The notes: generated from the sequence alone by a model not told the origin. Counted from the stretch's first letter, positions 917-8,776 are shown. The stretch is DNA of 64,000 bases from Candidatus Limnocylindrales bacterium (GCA_035308445.1 DATGGQ010000030.1:52598-116597); one strand, 5' to 3'. Translations and numbers: made by a program.

Positions 917-1591
917 ATGGTCGCTCGAACGGGCCGCCTGCTCACCGCCGTGGGGGCGGTCCTGGGCTCGCTCGTCCTCGCCCATTCGATCGTGTTCCTC
1001 GTCCGCTACGGCTCGGCCTACGGCGAGGAGCTGGCCCACAACGGGCACGACCTGGCGTGGTCGATCGCCGTCTGGGCCTCGATCGTCCTCGGCGTGGGGC
1101 TGGCGCTCGCCGGCGCGATCCAGCTGGTCCGGCTGGCGCGGGCCGCGAACCGGACCGCGTCGATCGCTCCGAAGCGCTCGCCGACAGCCGCCGAGATCGG
1201 TCGGCTCGATCCCCGGGCCTTCGTCCGGTCGTGGCTCCGCATCGGTGGCGGCCTCGCGATCGCCGTCGCGATCCTCCTCACCACTCAGGAGAACATCGAA
1301 CGCGCCGGCGTCGGCCTCACCGTGCCGGGCGTCGGGCTGCTCGTCTCGCCCGAGTACCCGTGGGCCGTGCCGATCGTCGTCGGCGTGGGCCTCGCGGTCG
1401 GCTTCGTCCTCGCGCTGTTCCGCTGGCGCCGGGGCGTGCTCGTCGCGCGCCTCGCGGCCGCTCGGCGGGCGGCGCTCGTCGGCCGGACCTCGGCGCTGCG
1501 GCCGCGCATCCCGTGGGTCGAGCCGCGCCATGCGGCCATCGTCGCCCACCAGATCGCCGGTCGGGCCCCGCCCGCGGTCGTCGCCGCCTGA
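917..1591 (+). CDS. Hypothetical polytopic membrane protein
   Basis: ATG at 917 directly after the tRNA. 224 aa with ~4 predicted TM helices (LLTAVGAVLGSLVLAHSIVFLV, WSIAVWASIVLGVGLALAGAI...). GC3 codon bias is as expected for a real gene. No recognisable motif. Confidence 0.5.
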   Translation: MVARTGRLLTAVGAVLGSLVLAHSIVFLVRYGSAYGEELAHNGHDLAWSIAVWASIVLGVGLALAGAIQLVRLARAANRTASIAPKRSPTAAEIGRLDPRAFVRSWLRIGGGLAIAVAILLTTQENIERAGVGLTVPGVGLLVSPEYPWAVPIVVGVGLAVGFVLALFRWRRGVLVARLAAARRAALVGRTSALRPRIPWVEPRHAAIVAHQIAGRAPPAVVAA

Positions 1592-1665: not shown

Positions 1666-2418
1666 ATGTCTTCTCATCGCCTGCCCGCGCGGCCGAGGCT
1701 GGCCGCCATCCTCGCCGCTGCGGCGTGCCTGTCGCTCCTGCTGGCCGGGACCGCCCAGGCCCACATCGTCAAGACGTTCGGCGGCTACACCGTGGCCCTC
1801 GGCTGGAAGGTCGAACCGACCTATGTCGGTATCCCGAACGCCGTCCAGGTCATCGTCACCGACTCGAAGGGCAAGGCCGTCACCGACATCCCGGACGGTG
1901 ACCTGACGGTCGTCGTCAGCCTGTCCGGCCAGTCCTCGGCCGCGCTGCCGCTCAACAACGCGTTCGATTCGGACACGGGCCTTGGGATCCCCGGCGACTA
2001 CGAGGCCTCCCTCGACCCGACCGTGCCCGGCGACTACACGTTCCACCTGAACGGGAAGATCCACGGCGTGGCCGTCGACGAGACGGCCACCGCCAGCGAC
2101 TCCACGTTCAACTCGGTGGTCGACGGGAGCTCCGTGGACTTCCCGACGAAGCTGCCCTCGATCTCGGACGTCGCCACGGCCGTGAGCCGGCTCGAGGCGC
2201 GGGCGTCCGCGGCCCCCGCCGCGAGCTCGGGACCGGATGTGGCGGCCATGGCCCAGGCGGCCCAGACGGCCGCGAGCGACGCGGCCTCGGCGGCCGCGTC
2301 GGCCCAGGCCCAGGCGAGCACGGCCCTCCAGGTCGGCATCCTCGTCGGGGCTGTGGGGATCGTCGTCGGCGTCGCCGCCCTGTTCGTCGCCACTCGGCGT
2401 CGGACCGGCGCGGCGTAA
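1666..2418 (+). CDS. Secreted copper-binding protein, YcnI-like (DUF1775-type), with C-terminal membrane anchor
   Basis: GGAGA RBS 7 nt upstream of ATG 1666. Signal peptide MSSHRLPARPRLAAILAAAACLSLLLAGTAQA, followed by His as first mature residue (AQA|HIVKTF...). C-terminal TM helix LQVGILVGAVGIVVGVAALFVA plus RRRTG tail. Sits immediately upstream of the CopC-CopD fusion, as in Bacillus ycnI-ycnJ. The family call is an inference. Confidence 0.55.
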   Translation: MSSHRLPARPRLAAILAAAACLSLLLAGTAQAHIVKTFGGYTVALGWKVEPTYVGIPNAVQVIVTDSKGKAVTDIPDGDLTVVVSLSGQSSAALPLNNAFDSDTGLGIPGDYEASLDPTVPGDYTFHLNGKIHGVAVDETATASDSTFNSVVDGSSVDFPTKLPSISDVATAVSRLEARASAAPAASSGPDVAAMAQAAQTAASDAASAAASAQAQASTALQVGILVGAVGIVVGVAALFVATRRRTGAA

Positions 2419-2435: not shown

Positions 2436-4499
2436 ATGCGCCGCGCTGTCGCCGCATCGACCATCGCGCTCGTCTGGCTGGCGGTCCTCGCCGGCGCGAC
2501 GCTCGCGCATGCCCTGCCGCAATCCTCGGATCCGAGCCCCGGCTCGAGCCTCGCCCAGGCGCCGACCCAGGTCTCGATCGTCTTCGGCGAGCGGCCCGAC
2601 GCCAAGCTGTCGTCGATCCGGGTCCTCGACTCGTCGGGGGCCGCGGTGACATCGGGCCCGACGACAGTCGCGCCTGGCAACGCGGATGAGCTGGTCGTCC
2701 CGCTCAACCCGCTGCCGCCGGGCGTCTACACGGTCGCCTGGCGGACCGTCTCCGCGGTCGACGGCCACAACGCCACGGGGTCGTTTGCATTCGGTGTCGG
2801 CGGCCAGACCCCGCCGCCGAGCGAGGTCGGCCCCGGCCCCGGGACCACCGTATCCTCGGGGCCATCGGACGCCGCGATCGCCGCCCGGTGGCTGCTCTTC
2901 GTCGGGCTGATCGGCCTCCTCGGCCTGTCCTTCTTCGGGGCGGTCGTCGCCGGCGCGGCGCCGTTCGACCCTCGGCGCCTGGTGCCGATCGCCTGGCTGC
3001 TCGCCGCCGTGGGCACTGTGGCCGTGATCGTCGTTCAGCTGAGCGAAGCCGGCGTCGCGCCCGCGGACGCGCTCGGAACGTCCTTCGGACCCGTCATCAT
3101 CGAGCGGACGGCGGCCATGGTCGTCGCGGCCGCTGCCATCGCCGCGTTCATCATCCGGCCTCGCGCGGTCCGGCCGGCCCTCGCGGTCAGCGGGCTTGCT
3201 GCCGCCGGAGCGCTGCTCGCCGACGTCGGCGCCAGCCATGCCGCCGCCGGAGCGCTGCCGATCCTCTCGGTCGCCATCCAGTGGCTCCACGTGGCGGCGG
3301 TCGGGATGTGGCTGGGCGGCCTGGCCGGGCTGCTCGTGGCGACCCGGCGCGAGCCGGGCCCCGGGACGGCAACGCTCGTGAAGCGCTTCTCGTGGGTGGG
3401 CACCGCGGGCATCTCGATCGTCGCCGCCACGGGCCTGGTGCGAGCCATCCAGGAGGTCGGGACGATCGACCAGCTCCTGGCCACCGACTTCGGGCATCTC
3501 GTCATCATCAAGACAGGACTCCTCGGCATCCTGGCGCTGCTCGGCGCGTTCAACCACTTCGTCAGCGTCCCGGCCGCCGGGCGTCGACTCAGGGGCCTCC
3601 GACTGGTGGGATCCGGCGAGCTCCTCGTCGGCGCAACGGTGATCCTGTTCTCCGCTTCGCTCGTGAACCTGGCGCCACCGGTCGAGGCCGGCGGCGGTGG
3701 CGGCACTGGTCCGAGCGCGAGCCCGGCCGCGACCATCGGGCCGCTCGTGGTCAGCGGCAACGACTTCGGGACGTCGATTCGGCTCAGCCTCGCGGTCTCG
3801 CCAGGGCTCGCCGGGTTCAACACGTTCACGGCGACCGCGACCGATTTCGACACGGGCCAGCCGGTCGCGGCCACGAAGGTGAGCCTCCGCTTCGACCTGC
3901 CCTCGCGGCCGGACATCGGCTCGTCGTCGCTCGACCTGGCGCCATCCGGATCGAGCCCGGGCGTCTTCGTGGGGACCGGCCCGAACCTCTCGATCGCCGG
4001 CGCCTGGGCCGTGACGGCCCTTGTCGTGAACGGCACCGGCTCGGTCGAGGTGCCCCTGTCCGTGACGACCCGCTGCCCGACGAGCCCGTCGCCATCGCCG
4101 ACACCGATCGTGACCCAGAACGCCGCCCCGGGGCTGCCGACGATCTTCACCGAATCGCTCCCGGCCGGTCGATCCGCGCAGGTTTACCTGGACCCCGGGA
4201 CCGCCGGCCACAACGAGCTGCACGTGACGTTCTTCGATGCGAACGGCACGGAGCTGCCCGTCCAGAGCGTGACGATGTCCATCGGCCCGTCGAGCTGCGC
4301 GCAGTCGCCGCTGACCCCGCGCATGCTGGAGCCGGGGCACTTCGTCGCGGACGTCGACCTTCAATCCGGCACCGACGTCACGGAGATGACCGGACCAGCG
4401 CCCACCGGCGAGCAGCTCGCGGTCCAGATCCAGCTCACGGTCGACCCGGCGCCGCCGCCCTCGGCCGGCGCCAGCCCTCCGAGCTCCGTGCAACCATGA
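2436..4499 (+). CDS. Copper resistance protein, CopC-CopD fusion (YcnJ-like), with ~270-aa C-terminal extracytoplasmic extension
   Basis: N-terminal signal peptide then CopC fold motifs (AHALPQSSDPSPGSSL...VSIVF...VAWRTVSAVDGHNATGSFAFGVG). Central ~300 aa has 8 TM helices typical of CopD. The C-terminus (GGGGGTGPSAS...) holds two repeated beta-rich segments (NTFTATATDFDTGQPV.../ELHVTFFDANGTELPV...). Confidence 0.8.
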   Translation: MRRAVAASTIALVWLAVLAGATLAHALPQSSDPSPGSSLAQAPTQVSIVFGERPDAKLSSIRVLDSSGAAVTSGPTTVAPGNADELVVPLNPLPPGVYTVAWRTVSAVDGHNATGSFAFGVGGQTPPPSEVGPGPGTTVSSGPSDAAIAARWLLFVGLIGLLGLSFFGAVVAGAAPFDPRRLVPIAWLLAAVGTVAVIVVQLSEAGVAPADALGTSFGPVIIERTAAMVVAAAAIAAFIIRPRAVRPALAVSGLAAAGALLADVGASHAAAGALPILSVAIQWLHVAAVGMWLGGLAGLLVATRREPGPGTATLVKRFSWVGTAGISIVAATGLVRAIQEVGTIDQLLATDFGHLVIIKTGLLGILALLGAFNHFVSVPAAGRRLRGLRLVGSGELLVGATVILFSASLVNLAPPVEAGGGGGTGPSASPAATIGPLVVSGNDFGTSIRLSLAVSPGLAGFNTFTATATDFDTGQPVAATKVSLRFDLPSRPDIGSSSLDLAPSGSSPGVFVGTGPNLSIAGAWAVTALVVNGTGSVEVPLSVTTRCPTSPSPSPTPIVTQNAAPGLPTIFTESLPAGRSAQVYLDPGTAGHNELHVTFFDANGTELPVQSVTMSIGPSSCAQSPLTPRMLEPGHFVADVDLQSGTDVTEMTGPAPTGEQLAVQIQLTVDPAPPPSAGASPPSSVQP

Positions 4500-4506
4500 G
4501 GTCCCG

Positions 4507-4968
4507 ATGAATCGCCGATCGCCCCGCTTCGCCGGGCTCTCGTCCGTCCTGCTCCTCGTGGCGCTGGGCTCCGTGGCCTGCGGCGGTGGGGCGAGCCCCA
4601 CCACGGCGCCGGCGACATCGCCCGGGGCGAGCATCGTCTCGAGCTTCGGCCCCCGCCCGTCGTCGCCTGCCGTCGTGACGATCGTCGAGCCGACGAACGG
4701 CGCCCAGCTCAGCGGCCCGACCGTCCATGTCGTGCTGACCCTGACCGGGGCCACGATCGTGCCCGCGACGACCACGAGCATCAGCCCGACGACCGGCCAC
4801 ATCCACCTGTACGTCGACAACAACCTCGTCTCGATGAACTACGGCCTCACCCAGGACATCCCGGTGAGCCCCGGGACGTACGTCCTCAAGGCCGAGTTCG
4901 TGGCCGCCGACCACGCGCCGTTCAACCCGCGGGTCTACTCGGCCGAAGTCTTCTTCACCGTCAAGTAG
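4507..4968 (+). CDS. Lipoprotein with HxH motif (DUF4399-like), hypothetical metal-binding
   Basis: ATG 8 nt after the CopCD stop. Lipobox LVALGSVAC. Motif TGHIHLYVDNN. 153 aa. Confidence 0.6.
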   Translation: MNRRSPRFAGLSSVLLLVALGSVACGGGASPTTAPATSPGASIVSSFGPRPSSPAVVTIVEPTNGAQLSGPTVHVVLTLTGATIVPATTTSISPTTGHIHLYVDNNLVSMNYGLTQDIPVSPGTYVLKAEFVAADHAPFNPRVYSAEVFFTVK

Positions 4969-4973
4969 CGGCG

Positions 4974-5759
4974 GTGCGGCTCGCCCGGTTCACGGTCCCG
5001 CGAGCCGCCGCGGCCGCGCTCGCCGTCGGCGCCGCGTGGGCGCTCGGGGCGCAGCTCGCGTTCCCGACGCTGACCCCGCTCTACGACGGCCTGTCGCAGC
5101 TCGACCCGTACCGCTACCTGACCCCGACGGGGAGCCAGCCCGGCAATCCCGGGGGCTTCGCCTCGAAGCCCGGCCTCGACGCCAACGGCCAGAGTCGAGC
5201 CTTCGCCGCCCTCACACCCGAGAACCCGCCGCAGGCCCAGCTCATCGCGCTCGGTGGCGCCTTCGTCGCGCCAGCCGGCTCGACGTCGATGGACGTGACG
5301 ATCGAGCCCGTCCAGCCGCTCGACCAGCCGACGGCGGGGGCGATCGCCGGCAACGTCTACCGGTTCACGGTCGTGGACGATGCCGGGAACGCGTTCGGCG
5401 TCGCCCCGGGCGCCCAGCCGACGATCACGCTTCGGGAGCCCGATGGCGTGACGGACGCGGTCCTGGGCCACGACACCCCTGATGGCTGGGTCGCGCTCCA
5501 GACCGTGCATGGCGGCGCCCTCGGGCTGCTCCAGGCCCAGGTCACCGAGCTCGGCGACTATGCCGTGCTCACGGGCGTCTCGCCGCCGCTCGACCTCGGC
5601 CCGATCGCCGCGATCGGCCTCGCGATCGGGGTTCCGCTCGTCGCGGTCGCCGTCTATCTCGTGCTCCGGCTGCGTCGCGAGCGTCGGGCCCGGGCCATCG
5701 CCGCCGAATTGGCCCGCAACCGGGCCCGCGTGCCCTCCAAACGTCGTCGTCGCCGCTGA
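4974..5759 (+). CDS. Secreted membrane-anchored protein, paralog A of an unknown family
   Basis: GTG start 6 nt after the previous stop. Signal peptide, conserved blocks PLYDGLSQLDPY, PQAQLIALGGAFVAPAGSTSMDVTIEPVQP, GNVYRFTVV, ELGDYAVL, then a C-terminal TM helix and Arg-rich tail. Paralogous to 7892..8776. Confidence 0.6.
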   Translation: MRLARFTVPRAAAAALAVGAAWALGAQLAFPTLTPLYDGLSQLDPYRYLTPTGSQPGNPGGFASKPGLDANGQSRAFAALTPENPPQAQLIALGGAFVAPAGSTSMDVTIEPVQPLDQPTAGAIAGNVYRFTVVDDAGNAFGVAPGAQPTITLREPDGVTDAVLGHDTPDGWVALQTVHGGALGLLQAQVTELGDYAVLTGVSPPLDLGPIAAIGLAIGVPLVAVAVYLVLRLRRERRARAIAAELARNRARVPSKRRRRR

Positions 5760-5793
5760 TGGCGCACCATCCGGGTACAGACCAGGAGCCGAC

Positions 5794-7212
5794 ATGACCA
5801 CACCGCTCGTCCACCCACGCCGCCGCCCGTCGCGCCTCGGGCTCGGTATCGCCCTGCTCGCCATCGCCGCCCCCGTCGGCGGCTTCGTGCTCGTGAAGGC
5901 CGTCTCGGCCCAGCCGATCCGGATCGGCGCCGTGTTCCCGATCACCGGCAACGCCCGGGCGCTGGCCGTGCCCGAGCTGACCGGCGTCCGCATCGCGGTC
6001 GACATGGTGAACGCCGACGGCGGCATCGATGGCCGGCCCGTGGTCCTCGACGTCCGCGACCTCGAGAGCCGGGCCGACGCCGACGGGATCATGGCCGGCT
6101 TCGCCCGGGACGGCATCCGGCTCGTCATCGGCGCCTATTCGTCGGACCTGTCCATCGCCGCGAGCGCGGCGGCCGACAAGGCCGGGCTGCTCTACTGGGA
6201 ATCCGGCGCCGTGGCGGACCAGCTGACCGGCCGCGGGCTGCCCCTCGTGTTCCGAGTCGGGGCGAGTGGCACGAACCTTGGCTCCAACTCGGCGACGTTC
6301 GTCGCGACCCAGCTGGCGAGCCGGCTCGGCAAGGCGGTCGGCCAGACGCGGGTGGCGATCGTCAACGCGAACGACGCCTACGCGACGTCCGTCGCCGACG
6401 CGGCCGCGTCCACGGCAACGACGGCGGGCCTCGACGTGGTCGCCCAGGCGACCTACGACCTCGGGATGCCGGACTGGACTGGGCTGATGGACCAGCTGAA
6501 GGCGGCGCGCCCCGACGCGATCATCCTCGCCTCCCACATCCCCGATGGGGTCGCCTTCCGGCAGGCGATGCTGGCGTCGGGCCTCAGGGTCGGGGCTCTG
6601 ATCGGCTCGACGATGGCCGAGTGCGACCCGGACTTCGCCGGCGATCTCGGGGCTGATGCGATCGGCATCTTCGCCTCCGATCGACCGACGGCCGGGTTCC
6701 GGCCCGATGCGCTCGATCCGACGGCGAAGGCGGCGTACGACCGCTTCTCGGCGGCGTGGGCGGCGGCCACGGCCGCTTCGGCGGCGCCCACGGCGGCGTC
6801 GGCGGCCTCGGGGGCCCCGGCGTGGGGCAGCGGCGACCCGGCGTGGGGCAGCGGCGAGCCGTACACCTTGATCGGGCCGGCCGAATCGCCGACCGCGGAG
6901 GCCTCGGAAGAGGCCCTTGCCGGGTTCTCGGCGGCGTGGGCCTTGTTCACGGACGTCCTGCCGGCGGCGGCGAGCACCTCGCCGGGCCTCGATCCCGCGG
7001 CCGTGGCCTCGGTTGCCCGAGCGGTGGACCTGCCGACCGGCGCGCTGCCGAACGGCGCCGGCCTCCGGTTCTCGACGGACGAAGCGACGCTCGGCCAGAA
7101 CCTGCGGGCGGCCGCGGTGATCTGGCAGTGGCAGGCCGTCCGCCAGTACGCGTTCGTCTGGCCGCCGTCGTACGCGACCGGCGCCATCGCCTTCGTGCCG
7201 CTCGGCCGATGA
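5794..7212 (+). CDS. Periplasmic solute-binding protein, type-1 (LivJ / branched-chain amino-acid ABC-type family), orphan
   Basis: AGGAG RBS 6 nt before ATG 5794. Signal/TM anchor (LGLGIALLAIAAPVGGFVLV), then IRIGAVFPITGN...VIGAYSSDLSIAA, typical of the Leu/Ile/Val-binding fold. Low-complexity insert APAWGSGDPAWGSGEP. No permease or ATPase genes adjacent. Confidence 0.75.
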   Translation: MTTPLVHPRRRPSRLGLGIALLAIAAPVGGFVLVKAVSAQPIRIGAVFPITGNARALAVPELTGVRIAVDMVNADGGIDGRPVVLDVRDLESRADADGIMAGFARDGIRLVIGAYSSDLSIAASAAADKAGLLYWESGAVADQLTGRGLPLVFRVGASGTNLGSNSATFVATQLASRLGKAVGQTRVAIVNANDAYATSVADAAASTATTAGLDVVAQATYDLGMPDWTGLMDQLKAARPDAIILASHIPDGVAFRQAMLASGLRVGALIGSTMAECDPDFAGDLGADAIGIFASDRPTAGFRPDALDPTAKAAYDRFSAAWAAATAASAAPTAASAASGAPAWGSGDPAWGSGEPYTLIGPAESPTAEASEEALAGFSAAWALFTDVLPAAASTSPGLDPAAVASVARAVDLPTGALPNGAGLRFSTDEATLGQNLRAAAVIWQWQAVRQYAFVWPPSYATGAIAFVPLGR

Positions 7213-7895
7213 TCGCGGGGCGGACGGCCCGGCGATCGGAGAGGGCGGCGCTCGGCGCGGACAGCGCGACGCGAGGCGCTGAGGCGGCGGCGCTCGGCGG
7301 GGGTCGCCTCGCCGGTCATCCCGTGGCGGCTCGATGGCTTCGGCCGGCGGGGCTGCTCGCCGGCCTCGCGATCGTCATCGGGGCACGCTGGGCGGCGACG
7401 GTCGACGGCCTCGACGCGATCGGCGTCGGCGTGCTGTTCGGCGCCGCCCTGGTCTGGGTCGCGGTCGTCGGCAGCCAGGGCACGGTGGCGTTCCGCCGTC
7501 CGCGGGTCGCCGAGGTCGTCTACGGGGTTGTCGGCGGCACGGCGCTCATCGCGATCGCCGTCGTCGCGAGCTCATCGGTGCCGCGGCCGATCGGCGAGCC
7601 GGCGCCCTCGTTCGCTCCGTGGGCGGCGGTGACGCTGCTCGTGGCCGGGGCCGAGGAGCTCCTGCTCCGAGGCGTGCTCTTCCGAGCCGTCGAGCGCGCG
7701 GGCGGCGTTGTTGCGGCGGTCGCGGTCACGAGCATCGCCTTCGCCGTCATGCACGTCCCGCTGTACGGCTGGCACGTCGTGCCGCTCGACCTGGGGGTCG
7801 GGATCTTCCTCGGTGGCCTGCGGCTGGCCGGCGGCGGCTGGCTCGGCCCGGCCATCGCCCATGCGATCGCCGACCTCGCGACCTGGTGGCTGTGA
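7209..7895 (+). CDS. CPBP family intramembrane metalloprotease (CAAX protease-like)
   Basis: ATGA overlap with the solute-binding protein stop. Motifs EELLLRGVLF and FAVMH...H (the EExxxR / FxxxH pair of CPBP/Abi proteases). The true start may lie further downstream. Confidence 0.6.
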   Translation: MIAGRTARRSERAALGADSATRGAEAAALGGGRLAGHPVAARWLRPAGLLAGLAIVIGARWAATVDGLDAIGVGVLFGAALVWVAVVGSQGTVAFRRPRVAEVVYGVVGGTALIAIAVVASSSVPRPIGEPAPSFAPWAAVTLLVAGAEELLLRGVLFRAVERAGGVVAAVAVTSIAFAVMHVPLYGWHVVPLDLGVGIFLGGLRLAGGGWLGPAIAHAIADLATWWL

Positions 7896-8776
7896 CCGCG
7901 GCCGCGACCGGCCGGCGCTGGGGCCTCGTTCGGCGCCGGGCGGCTCTCGCCAGCATCGTCGTCGGGCTCGCCCTCGCCTTCGCGACCGCAGCGACCGGAC
8001 GCCTCGCCGGCCCGCCGCTCTACGACGGCGTGACCCAGGTCGAGCCGTACGTCTGGCTGGACCCACCCCCGAACCACCCCGGCAACCCCTCGAGCGGCGC
8101 GGCGACGCTGCCGGTCAAGGGCGGATCGAGCCCGCTGGTCACGGTCGCCACCCAGGAGCTCACGCCGCAGGCCCAGCTGTTCGCGGTTCCCGGAGCCCTC
8201 GTGATGCCGCCGGCCACGACCTCGCTGCAGGTCTCGATCACGCCGGTCCAGCCGACCGCCCTGCCGACCGACGGCCACATCCTCGGCAACGTCTACCGAA
8301 TCCTCGTGACGACGCAGGCCGGATCGCCTGTCACCGCGCCCGCGTCGGCCAAGGTCAGCGTCATCCTGATGGCCCCCGATCCGACGACGACCCAGGCGAC
8401 GATGGGCCTCTTCGCCAACGGCACGTGGACGACCCTCGACACGACGCCCGAAGGGCAGGCGGCCGAGTTCCTGGCCGTGATCACCCAGTTCGGGGACTTC
8501 GCGCTCATCGGACCCGGTGTCGGCCCGAGCGCCGTTGCCTCGGCCGGACCCGGCGCGACCGTCGCGGGCGGCACGCCGGTGATCGGCCCGCCGACCGTGG
8601 TCCCCGGCAGCGAGACGCCGGGCGGCGGGATCCCGACGGTCACGATCGCTGCCGGCATCGCGATCGGCCTTGTCCTGGCGGGCCTCGTCGCCGTCGCGAT
8701 GCTGCCCGGTCGACGCCGTCGCGCGGTCGATCGCGACGGCTGGTCGAGGCGGCCGCCTCCACGGACCCGTCGCTAG
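7892..8776 (+). CDS. Secreted membrane-anchored protein, paralog B of the same unknown family as 4974..5759
   Basis: GTGA overlap with the CPBP stop. Signal peptide, blocks PLYDGVTQVEPY, PQAQLFAVPGALVMPPATTSLQVSITPVQP, GNVYRILVT, QFGDFALI, then C-terminal TM helix and RRRR tail. Confidence 0.6.
   Translation: MTAAATGRRWGLVRRRAALASIVVGLALAFATAATGRLAGPPLYDGVTQVEPYVWLDPPPNHPGNPSSGAATLPVKGGSSPLVTVATQELTPQAQLFAVPGALVMPPATTSLQVSITPVQPTALPTDGHILGNVYRILVTTQAGSPVTAPASAKVSVILMAPDPTTTQATMGLFANGTWTTLDTTPEGQAAEFLAVITQFGDFALIGPGVGPSAVASAGPGATVAGGTPVIGPPTVVPGSETPGGGIPTVTIAAGIAIGLVLAGLVAVAMLPGRRRRAVDRDGWSRRPPPRTRR

Follow-up and report, generated by a model that had tools for sequence, protein, structure and literature searches.

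A and B are ancient paralogues within a large, unnamed family of type-I membrane proteins. Together with an intact CPBP protease and usually an orphan solute-binding protein (SBP) of the LivJ fold, they form a conserved and tightly packed gene module whose link to copper genes is common, not universal. The reading tentatively favored here, as a candidate only, is that of a dedicated envelope module consisting of a CPBP protease and its substrate (or partner), which at this locus would be an accessory of copper handling. The window referred to below is the whole 64-kb stretch of DNA that was analyzed, and the cluster comprises the following features:

786-862: tRNA-Arg, directly before the cluster
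917..1591, plus strand: small conserved membrane protein opening the cluster (putative start at ATG 917)
1666..2418, plus strand: "YcnI-like" secreted protein (ORF; syntenic in most related loci)
2436..4499, plus strand: CopC-CopD fusion of the YcnJ type with a C-terminal extracytoplasmic extension (Pfam, NCBIfam CopD/CopC)
4507..4968, plus strand: DUF4399 lipoprotein (Pfam DUF4399, E 9.8e-9; syntenic in related loci)
4974..5759, plus strand: paralogue A, 261 aa, with signal peptide, ZU5/GAIN-B-like ectodomain, transmembrane (TM) helix and Arg-rich tail
5076..5573, plus strand: ectodomain of A (residues 35-200), holding the family signature
5598..5672, plus strand: C-terminal TM segment of A (residues ~209-233; AF2 helix 208-251 and sequence)
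5794..7212, plus strand: orphan type-I (LivJ-fold) SBP (Pfam Peripla_BP_6, E 8e-31)
7209..7895, plus strand: CPBP (Rce1-like) glutamic intramembrane protease (Pfam PF02517, E 3.7e-14)
7892..8776, plus strand: paralogue B, 294 aa, architecture as in A, plus a Pro/Gly/Ser linker of ~40 aa ahead of the TM helix
8015..8512, plus strand: ectodomain of B (residues 42-207)
8636..8701, plus strand: C-terminal TM segment of B (residues 249-270; AF2 helix 249-270 and sequence)

ORF calling placed A (4974-5759) and B (7892-8776) exactly where the first-pass annotation had them. The small membrane protein at 917..1591 gave no family match, and its homologues occupy the corresponding place in 16 related loci. 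Translational coupling of the SBP, CPBP and B genes had also been proposed, and the stop/start overlaps behind this proposal are present in the window sequence (ATGA at 7209, GTGA at 7892). However, an NCBI MAG protein, 99% identical to the window CPBP, is annotated with only 190 aa, equivalent to a start 38 codons downstream (GTG 7323). Consequently, the overlap between the SBP and CPBP genes is not certain in this genome. At the same junction, overlaps of 4 nt occur in the gene calls of loci L023, L027, and L060, and in several genomes CPBP and A/B genes are joined by overlapping or abutting stop and start codons.

A and B share 40% identity over 167 aligned residues (BLASTP, E 6e-31), which bears out their suggested paralogy, and both indeed possess a signal peptide, an ectodomain of ~165 aa, a single C-terminal TM helix and an Arg-rich tail. 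In the AF2 models, an N-terminal helix (signal peptide) is followed by a beta-sandwich and a C-terminal helix (208-251 in A, 249-270 in B). The TM segment of A contains Gly and Pro; the last 30 residues hold 14 Arg in A and 10 in B, and the tail of A ends in RVPSKRRRRR. The colinear blocks recognized earlier (PLYDG..PY, PQAQL, GNVYR, GD[FY]A) correspond to near-invariant columns among 258 family sequences, and the family signature in the ectodomain of A comprises PLYDG, PY, T-x-E-x-PPQAQ, GNVYR, R154, W172, and LGD[FY]A. The conserved surface includes the polar residues D38, E83, Q87, Q89, N127, Y129, R130, and R154. No His, Cys or Met is conserved in these 258 sequences. On this sequence evidence, a direct role of A/B as copper chaperones is therefore unlikely, and their link to copper is one of genomic context alone.

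A profile search (E<=1e-3) related 1,462 clusters to A/B; where a source is named, it is in most cases a Ca. Limnocylindrales or Dormibacterota MAG. The family proteins have a length of ~240-300 aa with just ~30 ordered residues before the sandwich. Neither A nor B matched a Pfam or NCBIfam family, so that the earlier statement that they belong to no assignable family holds for named sequence families but not for the fold, which is recognizable. Structure comparison of the models, a check set beforehand, assigned the predicted extracytoplasmic domain to a ZU5/GAIN-B-like beta-sandwich without an autoproteolysis motif, with ankyrin-spectrin structures among the best matches. The likeness to ZU5 lies in the fold alone: searches of A/B members with the Pfam models GPS, GAIN, and ZU5 (PF00791; 67 members for ZU5) returned no match even at E<=10. 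Unlike A/B, the ZU5 (ankyrin, UNC5, PIDD) and FIIND (NLRP1/CARD8) domains are cytoplasmic and eukaryotic, and their HFS/SFS cleavage site is missing from A/B. The GAIN-B-type sandwich is likewise common to A/B, the GAIN domains of adhesion GPCRs and MAIN proteins. The defining catalytic motif of the latter two, whose fragments stay associated after self-cleavage, is HX(S/T) and lies in the turn that leads into the final strand. MAIN proteins have a mean mass of 158 kDa; they carry extensive passenger domains (adhesion or enzyme) at the N-terminus and are anchored via sortase, SLH or the wall (Brogan & Rudner 2026, bioRxiv 10.64898/2026.05.12.724683). In contrast, the motif is absent from all 258 A/B sequences: position 192 (-2) is E/A/S/G, with His in a single sequence, position 193 is L/F, and the nucleophile position 194 (+1) is Gly in 255. 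A/B proteins are also small and stand-alone, are anchored by a TM helix, and are almost always paired with a CPBP protease, a pairing not described for MAIN.

The window CPBP scores above the cut-off of PF02517 and carries intact EELLLR, FAVMH, and HAIAD motifs. As EExxxR, FxxxH, and HxxxD are kept in all 35 full-length orthologues aligned, the protease of the module can confidently be predicted to be catalytically intact. Weak NCBIfam matches to MrtS (E 3.5e-6) and MrtJ (E 8.6e-5) fall far under the curated cut-offs. As in the myxosortase family (MrtS, MrtJ, Mrt_core), the CPBP gene adjoins that of a candidate client which ends in a TM helix and a basic cluster. However, A/B have neither a signature motif directly before the TM helix nor a conserved Cys, and one or two candidate clients per CPBP are found instead of a regulon. 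A myxosortase-type tripartite signal, in which a conserved motif, the TM helix and a short basic cluster follow each other at the very C-terminus, was considered for A/B and discarded, given the missing pre-TM motif and the cytoplasmic tails, whose median length of 30 aa (range 0-54) is unlike that of classical sorting signals. The conserved LGD[FY]A makes up the final strand of the ectodomain, and 5-60 residues separate it from the TM helix. Similarly, A/B were rejected as LPXTG sortase substrates, as no such motif precedes the TM helix (..YAVLTGVSPP.. in A, ..FALIGPGVG.. in B). Matches of the C-terminal regions to sorting-signal models (LPXTG_anchor, GVDTG_CTERM) are weak and sporadic (1-2 of 67 members), TIGR01167 is matched by one of 67 (E 0.004), and two A/B relatives with a TPDTG motif are labeled LPXTG proteins by JGI. 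These sporadic matches, the single-pass topology and an excess of proline in the TM segments would suit substrates: proline occurs in 79 of 247 family TM segments and in none of 21 TM anchors of the neighboring YcnI-like protein, the sequences being phylogenetically related. TM segments and tails are poorly conserved in sequence across the family, which argues against A/B being CPBP substrates.

Regulated proteolysis of a single-pass envelope protein by site-1 cleavage is exemplified by PrsW/RsiW. SEAL-domain proteins are bacterial single-pass proteins with a juxtamembrane ectodomain whose cleavage is the key event (PMC10556640). A possible working likeness of A/B to both systems consists in the juxtamembrane ectodomain, the single-pass topology and the membrane protease encoded alongside. 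The A/B tails lack a recognizable anti-sigma or output domain and the conserved module lacks a sigma factor or regulator.

The association with the protease is the most faithful one. Flanks of 2.5 kb or more on either side are available for 28 family genes. Of these, 26 have a CPBP gene on the same strand within 2.5 kb (the exceptions are L024 and L030), 24 have a LivJ-like SBP nearby and 23 have CopCD/DUF4399, which answers in the affirmative whether the neighborhood is conserved. The same-strand block YcnI-like–CopCD–DUF4399–[A]–SBP–CPBP–[B] is kept across 22 species-representative genomes where the contig reaches, as well as in further metagenome contigs, and independently chosen CPBP orthologues also adjoin A/B genes. 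A or B may be missing, the copy after CPBP being the commoner one in distant relatives. A/B and CPBP genes also stay together where copper genes are lacking, namely in Dormibacterota and in divergent metagenome contigs. The SBP–CPBP–A/B core of Dormibacterota, and of other contigs as well, adjoins an unrelated ~470-aa membrane protein, which is fused in frame to the SBP in L028 and shows no relation to CopCD by hhalign. In some loci (L025 and several metagenome contigs), the A/B–CPBP pair is retained with no intact SBP gene beside it. Thus, the view of the locus as one envelope unit is supported by the conserved same-strand block but needs qualification, as the core is separable from the copper genes; the suggestion that protease and SBP act together with A/B fits the persistence of their association in distant relatives. 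In addition, five protein clusters of a small clade (63-100% identity) contain the A/B ectodomain as an in-frame fusion to Caa3_CtaG, the copper factor of cytochrome oxidase; at the single fusion locus inspected, SCO1 and CopCD lie next to the gene. These fusions contain the ectodomain without a single-pass anchor to cut, another point against the CPBP-substrate reading.

The SBP belongs to Peripla_BP_6, with PDB matches of the LivJ type down to E 3e-14. No other gene of the cluster is as well conserved: identity amounts to 60-70% for most loci and falls to about 50% for those of the Dormibacterota type, with CopCD at about 45%, and the orthologue alignment contains 117 near-invariant columns. 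No ORF of the 64-kb window carries an ABC-ATPase signature (Walker-A plus LSGGQ), and the SBP is therefore an orphan here, as the first-pass annotation had stated; an ABC ATPase is also absent among the Pfam-annotated called genes of L023, L025/L026, L027, L060, and L061. The AWGSG insert described earlier exists (about residues 325-360) but is no defining feature: it represents a variable low-complexity G/S/Y/W loop of Limnocylindria orthologues that is absent from the Dormibacterota type. The residues of LivJ that bind the alpha-amino-acid moiety are S79, A100, T102, Y202, and E226. Fold and S79 (= S117, conserved) are common to LivJ/HAAT proteins and the window SBP, whereas A100 corresponds to G138, T102 to V140, Y202 to H248 and E226, read via the 4n0q alignment, tentatively to Ser. 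H248, M274, and C277 are invariant among the orthologues. Further differences from LivJ/HAAT proteins are the lineage-specific insert, the fusion to a non-ABC membrane protein in one relative and, within the 64 kb, the lack of any gene for an ABC permease or ATPase.

Upstream, CopC (E 1e-19) and CopD (E 3.2e-14) are combined within one protein, and the DUF4399 lipoprotein shows a lipobox (LVALGSVAC) and a GHIHLYVD motif. The designation of the secreted protein at 1666..2418 as YcnI found no support in sequence: it did not match DUF1775 at E<=1, any Pfam or NCBIfam family, or a solved YcnI-like chain in the PDB at E<=10, and only the architecture is shared (a predicted mature N-terminal His, AQA|HIVK, and a C-terminal TM anchor). 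In B. subtilis, ycnKJI is a copper-uptake operon, and actinobacteria have CopD–CtaG proteins. The window locus resembles the former in that a small anchored protein starting with His is encoded ahead of a CopC-CopD fusion, and the latter in the CtaG and Sco neighbors of one relative. It differs from ycnKJI in having no YcnK-type regulator and no detectable DUF1775 member, and from the described operons of both kinds in its additional DUF4399, A/B, SBP, and CPBP genes.

Several other explanations have to be weighed. A/B might remain uncleaved and act as stable scaffolds or adaptors in the extracytoplasmic trafficking of copper, with the CPBP having another client or a non-proteolytic role; this is possible but rather less probable than the favored reading. 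The frequent CopCD/DUF4399 neighbors, the CtaG fusions with SCO1 alongside, the polar conserved surface and the role of eukaryotic ZU5 domains as protein-binding modules speak for it. Partners suggested to dock at CopD/CtaG are CopC, the YcnI-like protein, DUF4399, Sco, and apo-oxidase subunits. However, the module is also found without a nearby copper gene, A/B have no conserved metal-ligand residues, and scaffolding leaves unexplained why a CPBP with its catalytic residues kept is the most faithful neighbor. An SBP-dependent transporter or sensor as the core, in which the SBP would hand over its ligand (a metal or a complex of one being conceivable) to CopCD or to the ~470-aa protein, with A/B and CPBP as auxiliary assembly or quality-control factors, is improbable. 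It would account for the L028 fusion, the strong conservation of the SBP, its missing ABC partner in the window and the altered ligand residues alongside invariant H248, M274, and C277. Nevertheless, a precedent for the use of a type-I SBP was found neither for CopD nor for the 470-aa family, these two membrane proteins are unrelated, and A/B–CPBP pairs occur without an adjacent intact SBP.

It is very doubtful that the TM helix and Arg tail are a generic anchor and that the adjacency of CPBP and SBP reflects operon packing without shared function. The similar anchor of the neighboring YcnI-like protein and the unconserved TM and tail sequences of A/B would agree with this, yet the adjacency survives phylum-level distances, two genomic contexts and changes in gene order, and fusions tie parts of the module to membrane proteins. 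Least probable is that A/B are MAIN-type autoproteolytic domains whose self-cleavage at the final beta-turn frees the N-terminal portion: apart from the missing motif and the near-invariant Gly, proteins of ~260 aa carry no passenger domain that could be released, and none of the Pfam models GPS, GAIN, and ZU5 matched.

In the favored model of a protease–substrate (or partner) module, the CPBP would be dedicated to the single-pass A/B proteins and cut in or beside their C-terminal TM anchor, either as constitutive maturation or release or as ligand-controlled shedding, so that a trans-acting protease would take the place of GAIN/MAIN self-cleavage. The SBP may recognize a ligand and dock on a co-encoded polytopic membrane protein, which would be CopCD here and the ~470-aa protein in other lineages, while the A/B ectodomain would most likely mediate docking between proteins on the outer face of the membrane and not act as a copper ligand. 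At this locus, the module would then be an accessory of an operon for copper import and cuproenzyme maturation. As the family is nearly always found beside an intact CPBP and an orphan SBP, it represents a testable candidate for a protease–substrate module.

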